In this document: positions 13,213 to 64,000 of the stretch, one piece after another | How the letters are laid out: each line of letters starts with the position of its first letter | Position numbering within the stretch: the first letter of the stretch is position 1 | Origin: an uncultured Verrucomicrobiae bacterium | GTDB taxonomy: Bacteria; Verrucomicrobiota; Verrucomicrobiia; Chthoniobacterales; Chthoniobacteraceae | Direction of reading: 5' to 3' | NCBI GenBank assembly: GCA_963769025.1 | Contig: CAVYKI010000006.1 | Span: 608,001 to 672,000, forward strand | Length of the DNA stretch: 64,000 nucleotides | The notes under the pieces: generated by a model | Seen by the model: only the letters and a program-made list of their open reading frames with translations | Database searches by the model: none | Told to the model about the DNA's origin: nothing | Program-made: the position numbers and the translations under genes

Positions 13213-13671
13213 ATGAAACACTTCACACTCACCCTCAGTCTCGCCGCGACGGCGTTGCTCACCCTCCCCACGCTCAGCCTCGCGGCTGACGAAGCCAAAC
13301 CCGAGCGCAAGCGCCCCGAAGGCGCCGGCGGCCCCGGCGGCCAGCGCCCCAATCCCGAGGAGCGCCTCAAGCGCATGACCGAAACGCTCGGCCTCACGCA
13401 GGAGCAGCAGGACAAGGTCAAGGCGATCTTCGAAGGCGGCCGCGAAGAAATGGCGAAGCTGCGCGAAGTGCCGGAAGGCGAGCGCCGGGAGAAATTCGGC
13501 GAGTTCATGAAAGGTCAAAACGAAAAGGTCCTCGCGGTCCTCACGCCCGAGCAGCAGGAGAAGTATAAGGCTGCCGCTGCGGAGCGTGCGAAGCAGGCCG
13601 GCGACCGTAAGCCGGGCGACCGCAAGCCGGGCGACCGCAAACCGGGCGACCGCAAGCCGGAAGCGAAATAA
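13213..13671 (+). CDS. secreted Spy/CpxP-like (LTxxQ) protein with GDRKP tandem tail
   Basis: Signal peptide; LGLTQEQ and VLTPEQ motifs; four 15-bp repeats at ~13597-13660. Confidence 0.75.
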   Translation: MKHFTLTLSLAATALLTLPTLSLAADEAKPERKRPEGAGGPGGQRPNPEERLKRMTETLGLTQEQQDKVKAIFEGGREEMAKLREVPEGERREKFGEFMKGQNEKVLAVLTPEQQEKYKAAAAERAKQAGDRKPGDRKPGDRKPGDRKPEAK

Positions 13672-44335: not shown

Positions 44336-44387
44336 GAGACCTCTGCGAAAAGCGAGTTTGCGCATGATAGGCAGGCATGAAAGCTAA
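43437..44387 (+). CDS. YihY/BrkB-family protein (duplicate; C-terminus extended into the IS)
   Basis: Same as copy 1 except one M->L change and the IS-derived tail RPLRKASLRMIGRHES. Confidence 0.88.
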   Translation: MKSLPSIFRDAFASWMAHKGPKMGAALAYYTAFSLAPLLVLLAGILGLVIDNDTARTALVGQIHDLMGDEGGAMVEAILQRSAPHEKGVLATIIGSVVLLLGASGVFVELHDSLNTIWETPPRSRPWVAFICERLLSFAMVFALGFLVLVSLVASAILAAVGSYVKGWAPGFEVLLEAANSLVSFVVVTLLFGGLFRFLPDVKVAWRNVWAGAVITAALFILGKFLIGFYIGRSSFASAYGAAGSLVIVLVWVFYSAQIFFFGAEFTRAFARTNGGVRTARHSDRTTSLAAMPAAPEGNLRPLRKASLRMIGRHES

Positions 44388-45528
44388 ACGGCGGAAATTT
44401 GCGGGCGGGGCTCGGCGCAGACGGAGTGGGAACAGCCGGACGGGTGGTGAAAAGCCAAGGTCATCGTCCCGGTGGGGGCGCTCCGGGGTGTGCGGCGGGT
44501 GGTTTTCATGCGGTGCACAGGGTCACGAGACGCTTGAGGTTCCAGGCCACGCTCTTGAGCTGGAGTTCGAGGGTGCCTTTGCGCAGGCCGGTGTAGCGCA
44601 TCCGCCGCCAGCCGAGTACGCGCTTCCAGTGGCCGAAGATTTTCTCGATGCCGGCGCGCGTGGCAGCCAGCCAGCCGTTGACCTCCTGCTGCTCGTCGGT
44701 GAGCGGGCGGTTGCGGCGCGCGGGCTCCATCAGCCCGCTGTGGATGCCTCGGGCGGCCAGCCATGCCTCGTGCTCGGCGCTGTAGTAGGCTTTGTCGGCG
44801 ATGGCCATCTCGGTGTCCGCCGGGCACACGTCCTTGAATTTTCGGCTGTCATGCACATTAGCTGCCGTCAGTTCCGCGGTGCGGATGAGCGTGTGCTCCT
44901 CGTCGGCGGCGACGTGTGCCTTGAACCCGTAATAGGCCCGGCCTCCCTTGGTCGCGTAGCCGGCCTCGGGGTCGCCCTGCGTGCCGTCGGCGCGCTCGGC
45001 ATGGGTGGGCTTGCGCCGCGCACTCTCGACGATGGTCGCATCCACGAGCGTGACGCTTTTGACCATCAGCCCGCGCGCTTCGAGTTGGGCATTCACCAGT
45101 CCGAGCAGCCGCGTGTGCAGCCCCCTCGCCACCAGCCGTGCGCGATACCGAACAAGCGCCGTCTCGTCCGGCACGCGATCCGCCAGGCCCAGCCCGCAGA
45201 ACTCCCGGAAGCTGCGCCGGTCGGCCACCTGCGCCTCGCACTCCGGGTCGCTCAAGTCATAGAAGTGCTGCAGCAGCGTCATCTTGAACATCACCAGCGG
45301 GTCGTGCGGGTCGCGCCCGCGCGTGGCCGTGTATGCCTCACGCAGCGCTGCCTCGATCGGCGTGAAGTCCACCACACTCTCCAGCTTGCCGAGGAATCTC
45401 GCCGTGCGGTTGCCCCGGTTCTCACGGTTGGCCATCTCATCCACGAAGTTCATCTGACGTTCGCTTTTGCTCATGCGTTCTTCGATCCCTCTCCCTCACA
45501 TGCCTTGGGGGATTTTCGCAGAGGTCTC
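44336..45528 (-). mobile_element. IS5-family insertion sequence (IS1106-like ends)
   Basis: Perfect 16-bp terminal inverted repeats GAGACCTCTGCGAAAA (44336-44351 and 45513-45528) around one transposase gene. Confidence 0.93.
44506..45474 (-). CDS. IS5-family DDE transposase
   Basis: LSDP..E...DRRSFR.FCGL..VPDET, VDAT, GFKAH, ADKAY, RAGIEKIFG..KR. Confidence 0.95.
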   Translation of the reverse strand: MSKSERQMNFVDEMANRENRGNRTARFLGKLESVVDFTPIEAALREAYTATRGRDPHDPLVMFKMTLLQHFYDLSDPECEAQVADRRSFREFCGLGLADRVPDETALVRYRARLVARGLHTRLLGLVNAQLEARGLMVKSVTLVDATIVESARRKPTHAERADGTQGDPEAGYATKGGRAYYGFKAHVAADEEHTLIRTAELTAANVHDSRKFKDVCPADTEMAIADKAYYSAEHEAWLAARGIHSGLMEPARRNRPLTDEQQEVNGWLAATRAGIEKIFGHWKRVLGWRRMRYTGLRKGTLELQLKSVAWNLKRLVTLCTA

Positions 45529-45764
45529 AGAATGTTTGCAAATATAGGGTTTTGCGCGGCATGACGCAGGAGGAGCTCGCGGCGAAGGCGGAAATGGACC
45601 GGAGCTACCTCGCGCGGATCGAGTCCGGCAATGCGAAGGCGTCGGTGGACCTCATCGAGCGCCTCGCGATGGGGCTGGAGGTCGCCCCGGAGAAATTGCT
45701 TCACGGCTATGCCCGGAGCGCCGGGGCCTTGCGGTCGCGGAATGGGAGCCATCAGCCGGCGTGA
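45529..45764 (+). pseudogene. XRE-family HTH regulator, 5' end probably cut by the IS
   Basis: Frame reads (Q)NVCKYRVLRGMTQEELAAKAEMDRSYLARIESG..SVDLIERLAMGLEV from the IS end onward. Confidence 0.75.
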
Positions 45765-45859
45765 TCCCCGGGCCATGCGTTTCATAGTGTCAGCCAATGG
45801 GAACGGGACGGGCGGGAACGGGGGGATTCCTGCGCAGGACACGCTGCTCCCCGGTCTCA

Positions 45860-46392
45860 TTAGGCAATCATTCCTGAGGGATGGGAGGGTCCGGGTCGCG
45901 GCCGGACAATCGTTCCCGGCAGACAACTCGCTCCGGGAGGCGGGCAGACAATCGTTTTCAAGGGACAACCCGCTCCGGCATCCCGAAACACAATCGTTTT
46001 CGGGGGACGACCGGCTCCGGCGGGTGAAAACACAATCGTTCCTGAGAGTCACCCGGCTCCGGTCTCTCAGGAATGATTGTGTTTTGGCACCCGCCGCTCT
46101 CAGTCCCGTCAAAACGCAATCAGTCCTGAGAGTCCCCACCCTGCCGGGTGAGAAAAGACAATCGTTATTGAGAGTCCCGAGCCGGTTGTCTGCCAATTTT
46201 GATTGTCGGGCGAGGCTCCGGAGCGAGGTGTCTGCCAATCCGGATTGTTTCCTGAGGTCCCGGAGCGGGGTGCCCCCCGAAAACGATTGTGTCCTGACGT
46301 TCCCGGGTCTCCTGCCGGTCAAAAATGATTGTTTTGCGGCGTTCCCAAGCGGGTCGCCGGTCGGGACGGATTGGTTTCCCGCCTCCCGGAGC
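45860..46392. repeat. 42-bp-period array of 13 degenerate units with orientation-switching CAATC/GATTG core
   Basis: Cores at 45865, 45907, 45949, 45991, 46033, 46075, 46117, 46159, 46201, 46243, 46285, 46327 and 46369. Confidence 0.92.
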
Positions 46393-46526
46393 CTTCCGTC
46401 CCCCGGGAAGCTTTGCGGATCGGGAGGGTCCAGTCTCAAGACGGCCAGGACCGAAAGCGGATGCGGCGAACGGGACTGTGGCATCGGCGCGCAGGCGCGT
46501 GGCGCAGTGAAGCGTGGCGGAGCCTT

Positions 46527-46659
46527 TGGACTGCGGCGGCTTGACGCCGCTTTCCGTTTCGAGGCTTGCCGAGAAGCCGGTGGTGCGGGGCTTCCCGATG
46601 GCCTCCCACGCTCGCCAAGGCTCGCCATACCCAAAGCGGCGTCAAGCCGCCGCACTCCA
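46527..46659. repeat. REP/MITE-like palindromic element
   Basis: tggactgcggcggcttgacgccgcttt ... aaagcggcgtcaagccgccgcactcca. Confidence 0.85.
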
Positions 46660-46702
46660 TGGGCTCCGCCCATCCTGCCGCGTGCCCGTTTTCCACTCCG
46701 TC

Positions 46703-47731
46703 ATGAGCCGCTGGGATGATCCGTCCACGACGTGGGACTCCTTTTTCTGGGATGCGCCGGATGCCCCGGTGCCGCCCCCGACCAAACACAGGAAAACAAA
46801 CCGACGAACCATGAGCAGCAACCCCACCCCGGACAACAACGACATCCTCCGCGCCCTGGCCGATCGCATCGCGGACGGGTGCAATACCCATGAAACGGCC
46901 ATCGGCATCAAGCAGAACACGGAGGCGGCCATCCGCGCGGCGCTCGCGGTCCTCGATGCGGCGCAGTACCAGCTCGGCCAGAAGCGGGCCGCGGTGGATG
47001 CCGGCTACGGAGCCATGCAGGCGGCGGATGTGGCCGGACAGACGACAGTCACGAACTGCAAGCTGCGCCTCCGGCAGAAGCTCGGCGAACGCTGGAGCGC
47101 GGCATGGGAGCCGACCGGCTTCCCGCACCAGTCCACCGCCGTGCCCGGCACGCAGGACGAGCGGTTCACGCTGCTCAAGAAGCTGAACACCTACTTCACC
47201 AATGTGCCTGCGAACGAAAGCGCCGACATGGGAGCGACCGCCGCGCTGTGCCTGGCGGCGTGGGACGCCCTCTCGAATGCCCGGCAGTCGGTGGCGGACG
47301 CCGAGGCCGCTGAGACCGGCGCCGCGAGCGCCCATGCCGCCGCCGCGGAAGCCCTTCGGAAGCGGGTGCGCGGGCTCATCAATGAGCTGGGCGGCCTGAT
47401 CGAGGACGACGACCCGCGCTACGAGGCGTTCGGCCTGAACATCCCGGCAAACCCGAGCGCGCCGGAGCCGGTGTCCGGCGTCACGCTGGCGCCGCTGGGC
47501 AACGGGCGCTTCTCGGCGAGCTGGCCCTACGCGACGCGGGCGGTGCGGTTCCGCGTGGAGACATTAGTCATGGGCACGGATACGGAATGGCAGAACAAGG
47601 GGAGCTTCCGGGACCTGGAGGCGATCCTGAAGAACTTCGCCGCGGGGCAGACCGTGAAGGTGCGGATCGTCGCCGGAAACGACGGCGGCGACGCCGCGCC
47701 GAGCCCGGAGGGGAGCGTCGTCGTCGCGTAA
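46703..47731 (+). CDS. hypothetical protein: WD-rich leader, Ala-rich helical region, C-terminal FN3-like domain (alternative start 46811)
   Basis: MSRWDDPSTTWDSFFWDAP; C-terminus PEPVSGVTL..SASW..FRV..VRIVAGNDGGDAAPS. Confidence 0.75.
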   Translation: MSRWDDPSTTWDSFFWDAPDAPVPPPTKHRKTNRRTMSSNPTPDNNDILRALADRIADGCNTHETAIGIKQNTEAAIRAALAVLDAAQYQLGQKRAAVDAGYGAMQAADVAGQTTVTNCKLRLRQKLGERWSAAWEPTGFPHQSTAVPGTQDERFTLLKKLNTYFTNVPANESADMGATAALCLAAWDALSNARQSVADAEAAETGAASAHAAAAEALRKRVRGLINELGGLIEDDDPRYEAFGLNIPANPSAPEPVSGVTLAPLGNGRFSASWPYATRAVRFRVETLVMGTDTEWQNKGSFRDLEAILKNFAAGQTVKVRIVAGNDGGDAAPSPEGSVVVA

Positions 47732-47756
47732 CGACGGGGGCGGGGCGGGGCGGGGT

Positions 47757-47913
47757 GAGAGTTGAGGGTTGAGGGTTGAGAGATGAGAGGCTGACTCGGC
47801 CGGCTAACAGTCCCCTTCCCTTTCAATAGCCTGCGTCCATCTCCGCATTGCATCAGTTCCCAGCTTCCGCCTCCTAACTTCCGCCTCTCCACTCTTAACC
47901 CTCAACTCTCAAC
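47757..47913. repeat. inverted heptamer repeats (GTTGAGR / YCTCAAC)
   Basis: gagagttgagggttgagggttgagag ... ctcttaaccctcaactctcaac. Confidence 0.7.
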
Positions 47914-47919
47914 TGAAGA

Positions 47920-48519
47920 ATGTTCGACCCTTCCCTCCCCGCCGATGCCACCAAGGCCACCGCCGCAGAGATGCGCGCGCAACTCACCGGGCTGAAGGCG
48001 GAAATCGACGCCATCCCGGGCATCACCTCGGCGGTGGTGGATTCGGTGACGACGACCGGTCCCGGCGAGCCGGCGACGGTGAGCGTGTCCGTGATCGGGA
48101 CGGTGTTGCATATTAGCCTTGCGCTGCCGCGCGGGGCGGATGGCGTCCCCGGCATGCAGGGCGAACAGGGGTTGCAAGGTCCGCCATTTGCCAGTGCGGT
48201 CATCGACAGCGTCGGCACGCTGAATCCCGGGGAGAATGCGACGGTGTCGGTGTCCTTCGACGGGAGCACGGTGCATTTCAGCTTTGGCATCCCGCGCGGG
48301 GCGCAGGGGGAGCAGGGCATCCAGGGCGAGTCGGGCCAGGTGACGACCGAGGCGCTCAACGGGGCGATTTCCTCTGCTCTCGCGGGCACCTCGAACAACA
48401 CGAACGGGGTCGCCGCCATGGACACGCCTTTCACCAACGACCCGCCGACCCTGGCCGACCTGGAGCTGATGCGGGCGAACTACAACCTGCTGGTCGCGGC
48501 GCTGCGCCGGCAGGTGTAG
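47920..48519 (+). CDS. collagen-like / fibre-like repeat protein
   Basis: Two ~35-aa beta-rich repeats (AVVDSV..PGEPATVSVS..HISLALPRG and AVIDSV..PGENATVSVS..HFSFGIPRG), each followed by G-X-Y triplets. Confidence 0.75.
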   Translation: MFDPSLPADATKATAAEMRAQLTGLKAEIDAIPGITSAVVDSVTTTGPGEPATVSVSVIGTVLHISLALPRGADGVPGMQGEQGLQGPPFASAVIDSVGTLNPGENATVSVSFDGSTVHFSFGIPRGAQGEQGIQGESGQVTTEALNGAISSALAGTSNNTNGVAAMDTPFTNDPPTLADLELMRANYNLLVAALRRQV

Positions 48520-48870
48520 CCCCTGGACTGCGGCAGCTCGCTGCCGCTTTCGGCTTCGAGGCTTGCCGAGAAGGGGGTGGGGCGTGTGACCGGATGCCAC
48601 CCCGCGCTCGCCAAGGCTCGCCGGCCACAAAGCGGAGGCGAGCCTCCGCAGTCCAGGGCTACGCGACACCTTTGAAGTTCGGGTCGTCGATTCCCTTCAG
48701 CTCGCTGCCGCTTTCGGCTTCGAGGCTTGCCGAGAAGGGGGTGGAGCGTGACCTTCGGCACGCTTCGCAGGGCAAGTCTTGCAAACGGAAACCCGGCCCG
48801 GACACCGCACCACGCTCGCCAAGGCTCGCCGGCCACAAAGCGGAGGCGAGCCTCCGCAGTCCAGGGCTAC
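48516..48870. repeat. two tandem REP/MITE-like elements separated by a duplicated gene end
   Basis: gtagcccctggactgcgg ... ccgcagtccagggctac; internal blocks shared with 46527-46659. Confidence 0.8.
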
Positions 48871-52318: not shown

Positions 52319-54131
52319 CTACCGGTGTAACTCGTTGAAAACCCGTCCGAGCGCTCCCGTGGTCCAGATGAGCGGATAGAGCCGTTCGTGATACCACAGA
52401 CGCGCGAAGTAAAAGCCGATCGGCGCCGGTTCGCGCCATTCGCCGGATTCGACACGCTCGATGAGCCAGCGCACGCCCCGTTCGATGACTTCCCGGTGCG
52501 ACGTCCCGGCCAGCGCCTCCACCGCGAGCGCCGTCTCCTCGACGCTCGAAGGCACGCCGCGCACGCCGCCCCAGCCGCCGTCGTCGTTCTGCGCCGCCGC
52601 AAGCCAGGCGGCCCCGCGCGCCGCGGGAGCCATCGCCGGCATCATGCCCGACTCCGCGAGTTCCCGGAGCGCGGAGACGACAAGCGCCGTTCCGTAGAGC
52701 GGATTCTCGTCGCCGGGGGCATGCTCATTCCCGAACCACAGCGGCACCCACGCGCCATCGTCGCGCTGCGTACGGATGAGATATGCAAGGCCGCGGTTCA
52801 TCCCGCGCACAAGCGCGGGACGCGCACGCGGATCGACTTCGGTTCGCCATGCATTCCACGCGCGAAGCACATGCGCCGTGAGATCCTGCGAACTCCGATC
52901 AAACGGCAGCGCGCCCCAGCCGCGGCAGAATGTCGGGATGCCGCCGTCGCGATTTTGCAGCCCCATCAGCCATCGCACGCCCGCGAGCCCCGCGGCGTGA
53001 GTGGCCGGATCGAGTGGCCCGAGCCTTCGCAATGCGATCAACGCGCCCGGCGTGTCGTCCGCGTCCGGAACGCCGCCGGGCAGATCCGTCCACGCCCAGC
53101 CGCCGGGCGCCGCGTGGGTGTAAGGATGCTCCACGCGCCACTGCTGGCCCAGCAGCCAACCGCGAAGCACGGCGCACTGTTCCGATGCGAGCACATCGGC
53201 CTGATGCGCCAGCGCCTTGATCGCGAGCGTCGTGGTCCACGTCGCGAGATTGGTATCGATCGGCCAGCTCCCGTCGGCGCGCACCGACGCGACCAGAAAC
53301 TCCGCACCTTTTTTCGCGACGATGTGCGAAGCATGCCCCATCGAGGCGAGGCTCATCGTGACGAATGACGTGAGCGGTGTTGCTTCGAGAAATCCCCCGT
53401 TCGGCGGCTGCAACGTCTCAAGCACACGCAGCGTCTTCTTTCGCGCCATCGTCGCGCAGCGCGCCGGTGAGCGGATTCCTCGTCGGCGCGTGATGGTGGA
53501 TCGCCTGCCCGATCGCGATGAGCGCGGGCAATGCGTAGCTGACCACCGGCAGCCGGAGCGCGCCCCAGAAACGATGCGACATCGCGGCGAGCTCGAACGG
53601 CAGCTTCGGCACGAGGCGCCAGCCGTCCGGACCGAGGCGTCCGGAGAGCGCGAGCGTCATCAGGATCGGGACGGAAAAGGTGCGGTCCTTTCCGTAGCGC
53701 CGCGCGATGACTTCCGGCAGGAGAGCGGTGCGCCAGCCATCCTGCGAGGCCGGAGCCGGGGACTCGTCGGCTCCACATTGTCGCCGAATCCACGCCTCGG
53801 CGTTCTCAACGACCTTGGGGAAATCCGAGTCGGCGTCCGCGGCGCCGAGCGCGGCCCAGCAGAGTGCGGTGGTGGAGATGTTCGACTTGCTGCGCGTCGT
53901 GTCGCCCCAGCCGCCGTCGGCGTTCACATTCTGCGCGAGCCACGCCAGCCCGCGGCGGATCAATTCCGCATGCCGCGCGCGATCCGCCGTCGCCAGCGCC
54001 GTCACGGCGGTCGCGGTCGAGAGCGCGCTCGCAGAGAGTTCGCCGGTCCAGTGCCCGGCGGGATTCATCTCCGCGAGCAAGGCGGAGGTCGCACGCTGCA
54101 ACGCGGCGGCGAGCCGATCCCGGTCGGTCAT
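52319..54131 (-). pseudogene. squalene-hopene cyclase-like protein, frameshifted near 53450
   Basis: GHWTGELS, NADGGWG, PDADDT (DxDD), QNRDGG, QNDDGGWG repeats. Confidence 0.8.
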
Positions 54132-54196
54132 CGCGCGGATTGCGCGCCATTCCATCGCGCGGATTGCGCGCTACCCGATCGCGCGGATTGCGCGCC
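54130..54196. repeat. three copies of an 18-bp unit at 24-bp period
   Basis: ATCGCGCGGATTGCGCGC at 54130, 54154 and 54178. Confidence 0.85.
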
Positions 54197-54198
54197 GC

Positions 54199-55357
54199 TC
54201 ATACCTCCAGCAGCAGTCGCGAAGGCTGTTCGATCGCTTCCTTCACCCGGACGAGGAACGTCACCGCCTCGCGCCCGTCCACGACACGATGGTCGTAGCT
54301 CAGCGCGAGATACATCATCGGCCGCACGACGACCGCGCCATTCACGGCGACCGGGCGCTCCTGAATCTTGTGCATCCCGAGGATGCCGCTCTGCGGCGGG
54401 TTCAAAATCGGCGTGCTCAGCAGGCTCCCGTACGTTCCGCCATTGCTGATCGTGAAAACTCCGCCGGACAGATCGTCGAGCCCGATCTTCCCGTCGCGCG
54501 CCTTCGCGGCGTACGCGACGAGATCGCGCTCGATCTCGGCGAAGGACTTCCGGTGTGCGTCGCGGACGACCGGAACCATCAGCCCGCGCTCGGTGCCCAC
54601 CGCGACGCCGATGTCGTAGAAATGGTTTTGCACGAGGTCATCGCCATCGACGCGCACGTTCACCTGCGGCACGGCCTTCAGCGCGGCGACGACGGCCTTG
54701 ATGAAAAACGACATGAAGCCGAGCTTGATGCCGTGCTGCTTCTGGAAGTCCTCGCCCATCGACTTGCGCAGCGCCATCACCGCCGACATGTCGGCCTCGT
54801 TGAAGGTCGTGAGGATCGCCGCGGTGTGCTGCGCCATCACGAGCTGCGCGGCGATTTTCCGGCGAAGGGGCGACAGGCGCTTGCGCGTGACCCGTTCGGT
54901 TTCCTGCGCGGCTGGCTTTTCTGAAATCACAGCGGGCTGCTGCCTCCTCGGCGGCGCTTTTCTCGGCAACGGGTGCCGCAGCCGCAGCTGGCGCAGGCTC
55001 AGGTTTCGCCGCTTCCTTCGCCGGCTTCGCCGCACCTTTCGCGGACTTCGCCGCCTCCTTCGCAGGCTTCGGCGCTTCCTTGGGCGCTTCCGCCTCGGCG
55101 GTTTTCGGTGCAGGTGCGGCTGCGCCGTCCTCGATGGTCCCGACCACTTCGCCGATTTTCACCTCCGCGCCAGCCTGAGCCTTGATGCGCAGCGTGCCAT
55201 CCGCATCGGCGGTGATTTCCGTGGAAACCTTGTCCGTATCGAGCGTCAGGAGCGTGTCCCCCTTGGCGACCATATCGCCATCATTTTTCAGCCACGCGGA
55301 GATCACTCCGCTCGTCACCGATTCGCCGACCGCAGGGATTTTGACTTCAAGACTCAT
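54199..55357 (-). CDS. sucB: 2-oxoglutarate dehydrogenase E2 (apparent frameshift near 54930)
   Basis: [19 protein letters not shown] lipoyl domain; [24 protein letters not shown]. Confidence 0.9.
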
Positions 55358-63436: not shown

Positions 63437-64000
63437 CTACAGTTCCAGCGACCGGAGCAGCTCCTTGTCCACCCTGCCGGTGACCTCCAGATTGTTCTCT
63501 TCCTGATAGGCGCGGATGGCAGTGCGGGTGTTCGCGCCGATTTCGCCGTCCACCTTGTCCGTGTAGTAACCGAGCTTCTTGAGCTTGCGCTGCACCAGGC
63601 CGACGATGGAATCGGAAGTCGTTTCCCTCGTCGAATACACGACCCGCGGCGCAACCGGCTCCGGCGGATGCGGCGGGATGATGAGCGTCAGCGGGTCACG
63701 GCGCGGACGCGGCGCGGGAATCGGCGGGCGCGGCTCAGGACCCGGGCCGGGATCGAATTGAGGACCGGGACGAATGGTGATCCCAAGCCCGCCGGGCCCT
63801 TGGATCGTCGCCGAGGGTCCGCCGGGGCGCTGAGGGGCCGTAGGTCCGCCGGGACGTTGCGTCGTCGTCGGGCCGCTGGGACGCTGCTGCGTCGGCGGGC
63901 CGCTTGGCCTTTGCGGGGCGGCCGGCGCGGACGGTGCCGCTGGCGCTGCTTGTCCTTGCCCCGGTGCCTGGCCTCGGCCTTGCGGCGCGGTTGGCGGCTG
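63437..64000 (-). CDS. Pro/Gln-rich protein with C-terminal peptidoglycan-binding domain (5' partial)
   Basis: VQRKLKKLGYY...DGEIGANTRTAIRAYQ..NLEVTG; frame stays open to the window edge with QRPxGP repeats. Confidence 0.85.
   Translation of the reverse strand, partial: QPPTAPQGRGQAPGQGQAAPAAPSAPAAPQRPSGPPTQQRPSGPTTTQRPGGPTAPQRPGGPSATIQGPGGLGITIRPGPQFDPGPGPEPRPPIPAPRPRRDPLTLIIPPHPPEPVAPRVVYSTRETTSDSIVGLVQRKLKKLGYYTDKVDGEIGANTRTAIRAYQEENNLEVTGRVDKELLRSLEL

Follow-up and report, generated by a model that had tools for sequence, protein, structure and literature searches.

Why would a bacterial locus hold a repeated element to a spacing of exactly 42 bp while the sequence between the repeats drifts? 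The question is raised by an array in the window, as we call the whole stretch of 64,000 nucleotides analysed here, taken from the genome of an uncultured Verrucomicrobiae bacterium. The array occupies 45846..46392 and has no assigned strand. Its cores, CAATC (F) or GATTG (R), are found 13 times out of 13 at 45865+42n, in exact 42-bp steps and in the order FFFFFRFFRRRRR, and a second motif lies at all seven positions claimed for it in the original prediction, as CTCCGG at 45931, 45973, 46015 and 46057 and as CCGGAG at 46218, 46260 and 46386. One extra CAATC falls off phase, at 46236. CAATC/GATTG occurs about once per 830 bp of the genome (1.2e-3 per base); a chain of 13 cores is expected by chance at ~1e-28, and core chains of at least four at lags of 15–99 are present at two loci in the 5.3-Mb genome, the window array and a copy at C9:1222544. 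Core-chain statistics and the arrays at homologous loci rule out chance or an assembly artefact as the origin of the array.

Does the order of the cores carry meaning? Inversion takes in entire 41-bp units, with a single junction base as pivot, and not the core alone; over their full length the units are 41–73% alike. The order had been described as mirror-symmetric about unit 7, and formally it is. A special meaning of this mirror is rejected: units in mirror positions agree at 23.8 of 41 bases and the 36 other F-R pairs at 22.8±2.9, and the exact mirror is not preserved in relatives. Three other copies of the array family (the homologous locus L001, the C9 copy and L047) follow the scheme F..F R FF R..R with different unit numbers, L001 and the C9 copy being clearly unequal and L047 reading FFFFRFFRR. 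That the window array reads as an exact mirror is an accident of how many units it happens to have.

To which genes does the array belong? It had been assigned to its neighbours, and the flanks of homologous genes, inspected for periodic arrays as had been suggested, bear this out. The linkage set comprised 40 genome loci with homologs of the gene at 46703..47731, 29 of them full-length with at least 500 nt upstream. In 27 of the 29, 42 or 84 is the top upstream period (scores 57–246, other lags at most 28); no 42-bp array was found at L020 and L033, in the seven partial distant matches, or in any downstream control. Both close paralogs in this genome carry arrays, as do 15 of 22 metagenome loci, the remainder being short or truncated. 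When units were compared over lags of 33–51, all 169 comparisons gave 42 as the best lag, and 39 and 45 were not seen. As the homolog loci are related by descent, P values are overstated. Unit number among cluster representatives ranges from 3 to 13, and alignments of close orthologs show length differences of 42 or 210 bp; the view that the array is unlike a slippage VNTR is thus not supported. The gene homologs come from Verrucomicrobia and are patchy there: of 301 genomes sampled from the phylum, 3 have one, this genome included.

The period outlasts the sequence that carries it. It is retained beside proteins only 31% identical, at a median similarity between array consensus sequences of 0.48, compared to a null of 0.45, and arrays adjoining ~74%-identical proteins can fall to chance similarity. 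Array similarity tracks the downstream gene (rho 0.39) more than the helix-turn-helix (HTH) gene upstream (rho 0.19). At L005 and L012 the HTH proteins are 98% identical and the array similarity is 0.45 (null 0.447), whereas L001 and the window share an HTH identity of 14% and an array similarity of 0.76. We therefore rejected the HTH protein as a reader of core or unit sequence, since 98%-identical HTHs adjoin unrelated arrays.

The cassette runs, in order, XRE-family HTH gene, array, helical-bundle/FN3 gene and collagen-like gene. Outside it lies an IS5-family element (44336..45528, minus strand; Pfam DDE_Tnp_1 and DUF772; terminal inverted repeats) with its DDE transposase at 44506-45474. 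This element is present as a single full copy in the genome, shows no visible target duplication, and apparently stands in place of two lost gene ends, 3' in yihY (43431-) and 5' in the HTH gene. The latter, 5'-truncated by the insertion (45529..45764, plus strand; HTH_3, E 1.6e-11), is controller (C-protein)-like, its top PDB matches being restriction-modification controller proteins and QseC; at the same cassette position, 17 of 19 homolog ORFs tested have a Pfam HTH_3/HTH_31 match. Flanking genes vary by locus. In the 84 ORFs examined beside 29 loci, no gene for a recombinase, Rep, Par, Cas1/2 or reverse transcriptase recurs; a single HD plus helicase (Cas3-like) ORF lies upstream of one cassette (L073:414-1763, minus strand), and restriction-modification or AAA_21 genes adjoin four (L002, L014, L025, L086).

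The FN3 gene (46703..47731, plus strand) encodes 342 aa and matches no Pfam or NCBIfam family. Its N-terminal 36 aa are Trp-Asp-rich and then basic; the whole protein is acidic (pI 5.2), like others of the family (pI 4.7–6.2). The 306-aa core is modelled by AF2 at pLDDT 94.5 as two long helical hairpins and a C-terminal FN3 domain, which finds a fold match at Z 15.2 (rmsd 1.4, 89 aligned); the helical part alone, searched with a single-sequence model (pLDDT 62), retrieves generic coiled coils at Z of at most 10.3. The Trp-Asp-rich N-terminus has a pN/pS of 0.25, and this protein-level selection identifies 46703 as a real start. A second in-frame ATG follows at 46811, preceded by an A/C-rich run. 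The family conserves both starts, which in the window have 36 codons between them, so that a long and a short isoform may be made.

Between this gene and the next lies a heptamer-repeat hairpin (47752..47914), probably a separate selfish insert. The collagen-like protein (47920..48519, plus strand; Collagen, E 3.6e-4) resembles phage head and tail fibres, and tblastn places its gene downstream of the FN3 gene in 24 of 40 loci. It matches an Atlas cluster with Phage_head_fibr at 75% (score 0.94, low recognition value) and also PHROG tail families; the head-fibre cluster is its nearest non-bacterial look-alike, to be taken as a lead only. PADLOC returned nothing for the FN3 and fibre proteins, and searches of viral contigs, phages and plasmids returned no homolog. 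REP-like hairpins of one family stand on both sides of the FN3-collagen pair, at 46516-46670 and ~48518-48870. In the window, an Rfam search gave two sub-threshold chance matches, both outside the array, and a sigma-70 scan found no promoter; one TGGCAC, a sigma-54-type box, lies inside the array and none was seen at the start of the leader frame described below. Further tandem repeats of the window are at 54129-54196 (24 bp) and 55000-55081 (21 bp), both within ORFs, and at 13593-13660 (15/30 bp) and 63819-63903 (27 bp).

What ties the array to the gene behind it? The array lies inside an ATG-started frame that ends over the FN3 start codon, a conserved, sequence-neutral and coupled frame that the original prediction had missed. 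This leader ORF of 314 codons (45775-46719, plus strand) begins just after the HTH stop, runs through the array and a non-repetitive spacer, stays open through the REP-like hairpin (inverted repeat I3, 46516..46670; 39 BLAST segments of at least 40 nt across the genome), and overlaps the FN3 gene start by 17 nt. Across the loci, the position of the leader stop relative to the following start ranges from −2 to +20, with ATGA, GTGA or longer overlaps. An antisense open frame of 400 codons (45471..46673, minus strand) mirrors the leader frame; it has no Pfam match, and there is no evidence for its being a gene.

Because motifs of the array could themselves favour one frame, the frame was fixed by the dyad axis of the units and the non-repeat parts were scored; this rule was chosen after the first 30 loci had been viewed. 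With one locus taken per 85% cluster (all 43 loci were also scored), the stretch from ATG to gene is free of stops in the dyad-defined frame for 25 of 26 homolog clusters, and in the other two frames for 0 and 5. Non-repeat spacers of at least 60 nt are open in this frame in 23 of 23 cases (others, 11 and 10), and an upstream ATG is reached before any stop in 25 of 26 (others, 7 and 8). At least one plus frame leads from array to gene without a stop in 30/30 loci, against 11.2 expected from shuffles; a minus frame is open in 21/30, a number raised by palindromy. In loci fetched afterwards, a plus frame is open in 13/13 and a minus frame in 7/13; two of these loci, L079 and L083, are near or exact duplicates and were kept out of the 43-locus and cluster tests. 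The register of frame to dyad is identical in 27 of 28 loci, L025 alone using another (L029 and L031 conform), and the base after the leader ATG is A in 20/28, compared to 76/213 for other ATGs. In four loci (C9a, C9b, L023, L078) the dyad frame is fused in frame to the FN3 gene; in L026 the leader ATG is absent. Leader lengths, pN/pS and register counts were obtained from a hand-picked list of ATGs, of which the open-frame counts are independent. Left out of the frame counts were loci with too little upstream DNA (L009, L022, L027, L034, L076, L088, L090, L092), loci in which no array was called (L020, L032, L033, L035-L040, L077, L084, L087, L098), and the distant loci L095, L096, L099 and L101, which were viewed by eye. 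Three of these last (L095, L096, L099), homologs without the Trp-Asp leader, have arrays and, by eye, no clear coupled frame.

Is the encoded peptide itself selected? Within arrays, pN/pS is 0.80 in the leader frame and 0.79 and 1.12 off frame. In eight ortholog pairs it is 0.56–1.61 for the leader, compared to 0.09–0.43 for the FN3 gene, and the purifying selection on amino acids that marks a repeat protein gene is not seen. A gene-less copy of the array in this genome (G000:C9:1222544-1223131; ~6545-7130 of L041), situated directly after tRNA-Gln and before mfd, is 81% identical, contains one 41-bp unit and has stops in all three frames. Another copy (L047:1527-1862, G004:C119) lies between convergent genes, with no FN3 gene seen adjacent, and has one 41-bp spacing. 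With pN/pS near 1, an open frame conserved and the gene-less copy frameshifted, we conclude that the leader peptide is not under selection, while the frame is kept. At the level of sequence comparison, this demonstrates selection for an open frame and not for its amino acids.

Translational coupling through overlapping stop and start codons is established, as are leader ORFs. Like known coupled leaders, the array leader has a start codon, a conserved open frame and a stop/start overlap or fusion; it differs from them in being 95–325 codons long, repeat-built, protein-neutral and laid over phased dyads. Taken alone, coupling of the leader to the FN3 gene is very probable.

Does the array act as DNA or as RNA? 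Core dyads are centred at 45867+42n, and junction dyads, of the type GAG-N-CTC, at 45846+42n, where they fall on third codon positions of the leader ORF. In 245 units taken from 30 loci, complementarity has exactly two maxima, on axes separated by 21 bp (0.58 and 0.50, compared to 0.19–0.32 elsewhere); a unit thus consists of two 21-bp halves in opposite orientation. The junction GAG-N-CTC is the sole motif widely common across arrays, the core dyad being variable. Bases adjoining the dyad centre are complementary (0.52, 0.60), G-U and A-C counts at the two dyads are 424/404 and 453/428, without bias, and arms pair as well across units as within their own (10.73 in both cases), with no unit-specific compensation; in the window array own-unit pairing is 5.6/19. 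These three observations disfavour a strand-specific RNA hairpin. Both strands nevertheless fold strongly as RNA (z −8.2 for the array strand, −9.9 for the antisense), and given this folding the array may have a role as RNA. The dyads may also be a relic of the origin of the array by inverted duplication of a 21-mer. Of the two options initially offered, a helically phased, double-stranded platform has gained from dyads that show no strand bias, and a structured or processed nucleic acid has lost ground.

The comparisons thus establish the geometry, the link to the gene, and selection that keeps an overlapping frame open whatever peptide it encodes. As the reading that best combines them we tentatively propose, at a probability of roughly 0.45, that the array is a double-stranded, helically phased docking track for a putative binder, placed inside a translationally coupled leader. 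It would act in cis, as a series of 21-bp half-units that each span two turns of DNA and alternate in orientation, in the transcribed leader of a small operon for a helical/FN3 protein and a trimeric fibre. Ribosomes would start at the ATG just after the HTH gene, traverse the 0.3–1 kb leader and reinitiate at the overlapping FN3 start. Translation protects a transcript from Rho, and translation of this leader would shield it in the same way. In some Verrucomicrobia few Shine-Dalgarno sites are in use, according to the portion of the source drawn on here (PMC10783764), and for this reason coupling could be useful.

The second half of the docking proposal is the weaker one. As double-stranded DNA, the array would expose dyads at two-turn intervals along the same side of the helix, where a putative two-fold symmetric protein would line up with little base specificity. 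Any reader of the array must be nearly sequence-blind, since arrays at chance similarity are found beside ~74%-identical proteins. The likeliest candidate is the long FN3 isoform of the operon, which would need its basic N-terminal arm to bind because the protein is acidic; a host nucleoid protein is an alternative. The outcome may be feedback on transcription, or the seeding of an assembly. Against the docking track, the exact 42 is partly accounted for by the need to keep frame.

Known phased systems offer the closest analogy. The sopC centromere of the F plasmid and plasmid iterons consist of tandem units whose length comes close to a whole number of helical turns, with a dyad in each and a protein gene adjacent, and their sites are sequence-specific for ParB or Rep. 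Helically phased dyad units are common to these and to the array. The array differs in that its sequence turns over to chance level and does not track the HTH, that neither the cassette nor the recurring genes among the flanking ORFs include Rep or ParA/ParB, and that it sits inside a coupled reading frame. By analogy, it would work most like a sopC-type track placed in a coupled leader.

How do other explanations fare? In one that we consider unlikely, the leader is a ladder of hairpins unwound by ribosomes, and synthesis of the FN3 and fibre proteins reports translation speed or supply in an attenuation-like manner. Such a gate would be consistent with the strong folding of the array strand, with dyads in every array and a conserved coupled frame, and with a terminator-like hairpin at 46533 within the frame; however, this hairpin is part of the REP insert, the antisense strand folds too, the G-U bias and unit-specific compensation are absent, and the gate supplies no reason for exactly 42.

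Somewhat less credible is the leader peptide as the product, a low-constraint repeat of 14 residues that would set the length of a fibre-tipped helical/FN3 filament, like a tape measure, or scaffold it. The near-constant register to the dyad, the A after the ATG, the in-frame runs into the FN3 gene and the fibre-like partner gene all agree with it, but a pN/pS of ~1 and the switched frame of L025 do not, and selection on a peptide leaves the dyad symmetry of the DNA unexplained. Stops often block the other frames, so that the register may be merely inherited. About equally doubtful is a variant of the docking proposal in which a putative polymer of the FN3 protein forms on its own array, as a self-assembling nucleoprotein element without a mobility enzyme of its own. 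Here one subunit or dyad per 21 bp would be read by geometry, and the FN3 domains would bear phage-like fibres; how large the structure grows would depend on the length of the array, and the neutral frame would tie subunit synthesis to an array in phase.

The array could also be a neutral or selfish minisatellite, BrickBuilt- or REP-like, that settled in a leader, its 42 bp being historical and its open frame tolerance; we rate this a shade lower still. Unit number does vary, gene-less copies exist, and a 95–98%-identical strain differs at 18 of 366 array-side bases, compared to 19 of 898 in the FN3 gene. Nevertheless, the period survives complete sequence turnover, the sequence family has only two copies in the genome, and the position of the array in the cassette is constant. 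BrickBuilt of Porphyromonas gingivalis, a minisatellite-MITE, has in the portion of its description used here a 23-nt unit in 19 copies, inverted-repeat ends and a range of one species (PMC4596501). It resembles the array as an intergenic tandem array with leader and tail and with stand-alone copies (PMC4596501); the array is not dispersed in this way, and throughout Verrucomicrobia it accompanies a single gene family. REPs with GTAG/CGTC tags and BIME-like clusters, palindromic units in opposite orientations, occur in Verrucomicrobia according to the excerpted source (PMC3733652). As compared with the features given there (PMC3733652), the array has no GTAG and no phased CGTC, is not high-copy or dispersed, and keeps a strict period. 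The match to a REP class or a protein-selected repeat gene that had been named as a possible outcome was thus sought and not obtained, pN/pS being ~1.

A guide or small-RNA array, CRISPR- or TIGR-like, whose transcripts would be cut into RNAs of 21 or 42 nt for use by the adjacent protein, is very improbable. In its favour, the arrays of the window, L001, L011 and L015 have variable stretches between two conserved motifs that take turns, but many homolog arrays are near-identical tandem copies. The window array was correctly judged not to be CRISPR: it has no constant direct repeat with unrelated spacers, its units being alike throughout with two dyads each, and cas genes are absent from the cassette. 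TIGR-Tas, in the sections of its description considered here, is built of 36-nt units with box C/D motifs and variable spacers and is accompanied by a Nop-domain protein (PMC12045711), and shares with our array the two alternating conserved motifs per unit and the adjacent protein gene (PMC12045711). Compared with that partial description, the array has 42-bp units, is often homogeneous, lacks the box C motif TGATG in the window and has CTGA in 5 of 13 units; the adjacent 342-aa protein, modelled as helical hairpins and FN3 and without a Pfam match, shows no sign of a Nop domain, and no Nop, Cas1/2 or nuclease family is found in the cassette or recurs among the 84 flanking ORFs. Equally remote is a shufflon-like recombinational switch of invertible units: complete units are inverted about dyads with the frame preserved, and inverted units turn up now and then in L011, L013 and L015, but unit order is inherited in four copies and not variable, no recombinase was found among the 84 flanking ORFs of 29 loci, and four DNA sequencing runs of patchy cover (none at 45935-46148) showed no strand-change joints. 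Active flipping of units is hence not upheld; flips in this array family are rare, inherited and old.

Other arrays of this genome (G000) deserve mention. Lags of the 21/42-bp type occur at 17 of its 30 periodic loci. Among six other gene-adjacent arrays of this type, that of C3 has an ATG-to-ATGA frame, that of C13 an open frame that ends on the gene start but lacks an ATG, those at C9:148381 and C12 have frames ending a few to ~27 nt short of the gene, and two in C2 have no coupled frame; coupling as a general rule is therefore clear for only some of them. Arrays of 21 or 41–42 bp precede Trp-Asp-rich or MPxRxLP-type gene starts at C13:21828, C2:176132 and C2:337517, and arrays of the same type do so at C3:3885, C12:519400 and C9:147881; several of them are followed by the collagen-like gene. 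Homology of the FN3 family to the C13 and C2:338476 genes is weak (hhalign probability 44 and 60, mostly in the WD leader), and a comparison of this kind detected none to the C12, C9:148381 and C2:176632 genes. At C10:336723, C9:210123, C9:1126397, C2:421681, C3:868650 and C6:467097 no such gene was found adjacent to a 21/42-bp array, that of C2:421681 being followed by a transposase-like ORF. Extra collagen-like gene copies stand beside other partner genes at C10:392278, C3:5197, C13:20233, C2:339329 and C12:169385.

By its sequence features, then, the array fails the defining tests of CRISPR, TIGR-Tas, REP, BrickBuilt, iteron/sopC and repeat-protein genes. A literature search, incomplete in coverage and with most subscription journals outside it, yielded no description of such an array, and the system of array, leader and FN3 gene is apparently undescribed.

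What does this mean for the family? What defines the known phased arrays is a sequence recognised by a cognate protein. The arrays described here keep their period and symmetry even where their sequences have diverged to chance similarity, and this suggests that geometry is what is read. In the coupled, peptide-neutral leader, selection clearly acts on translation itself, across up to 1 kb of repeats, and the FN3 family linked to these arrays is large and unnamed, with 666 clusters at 50% identity (E at most 1e-30).
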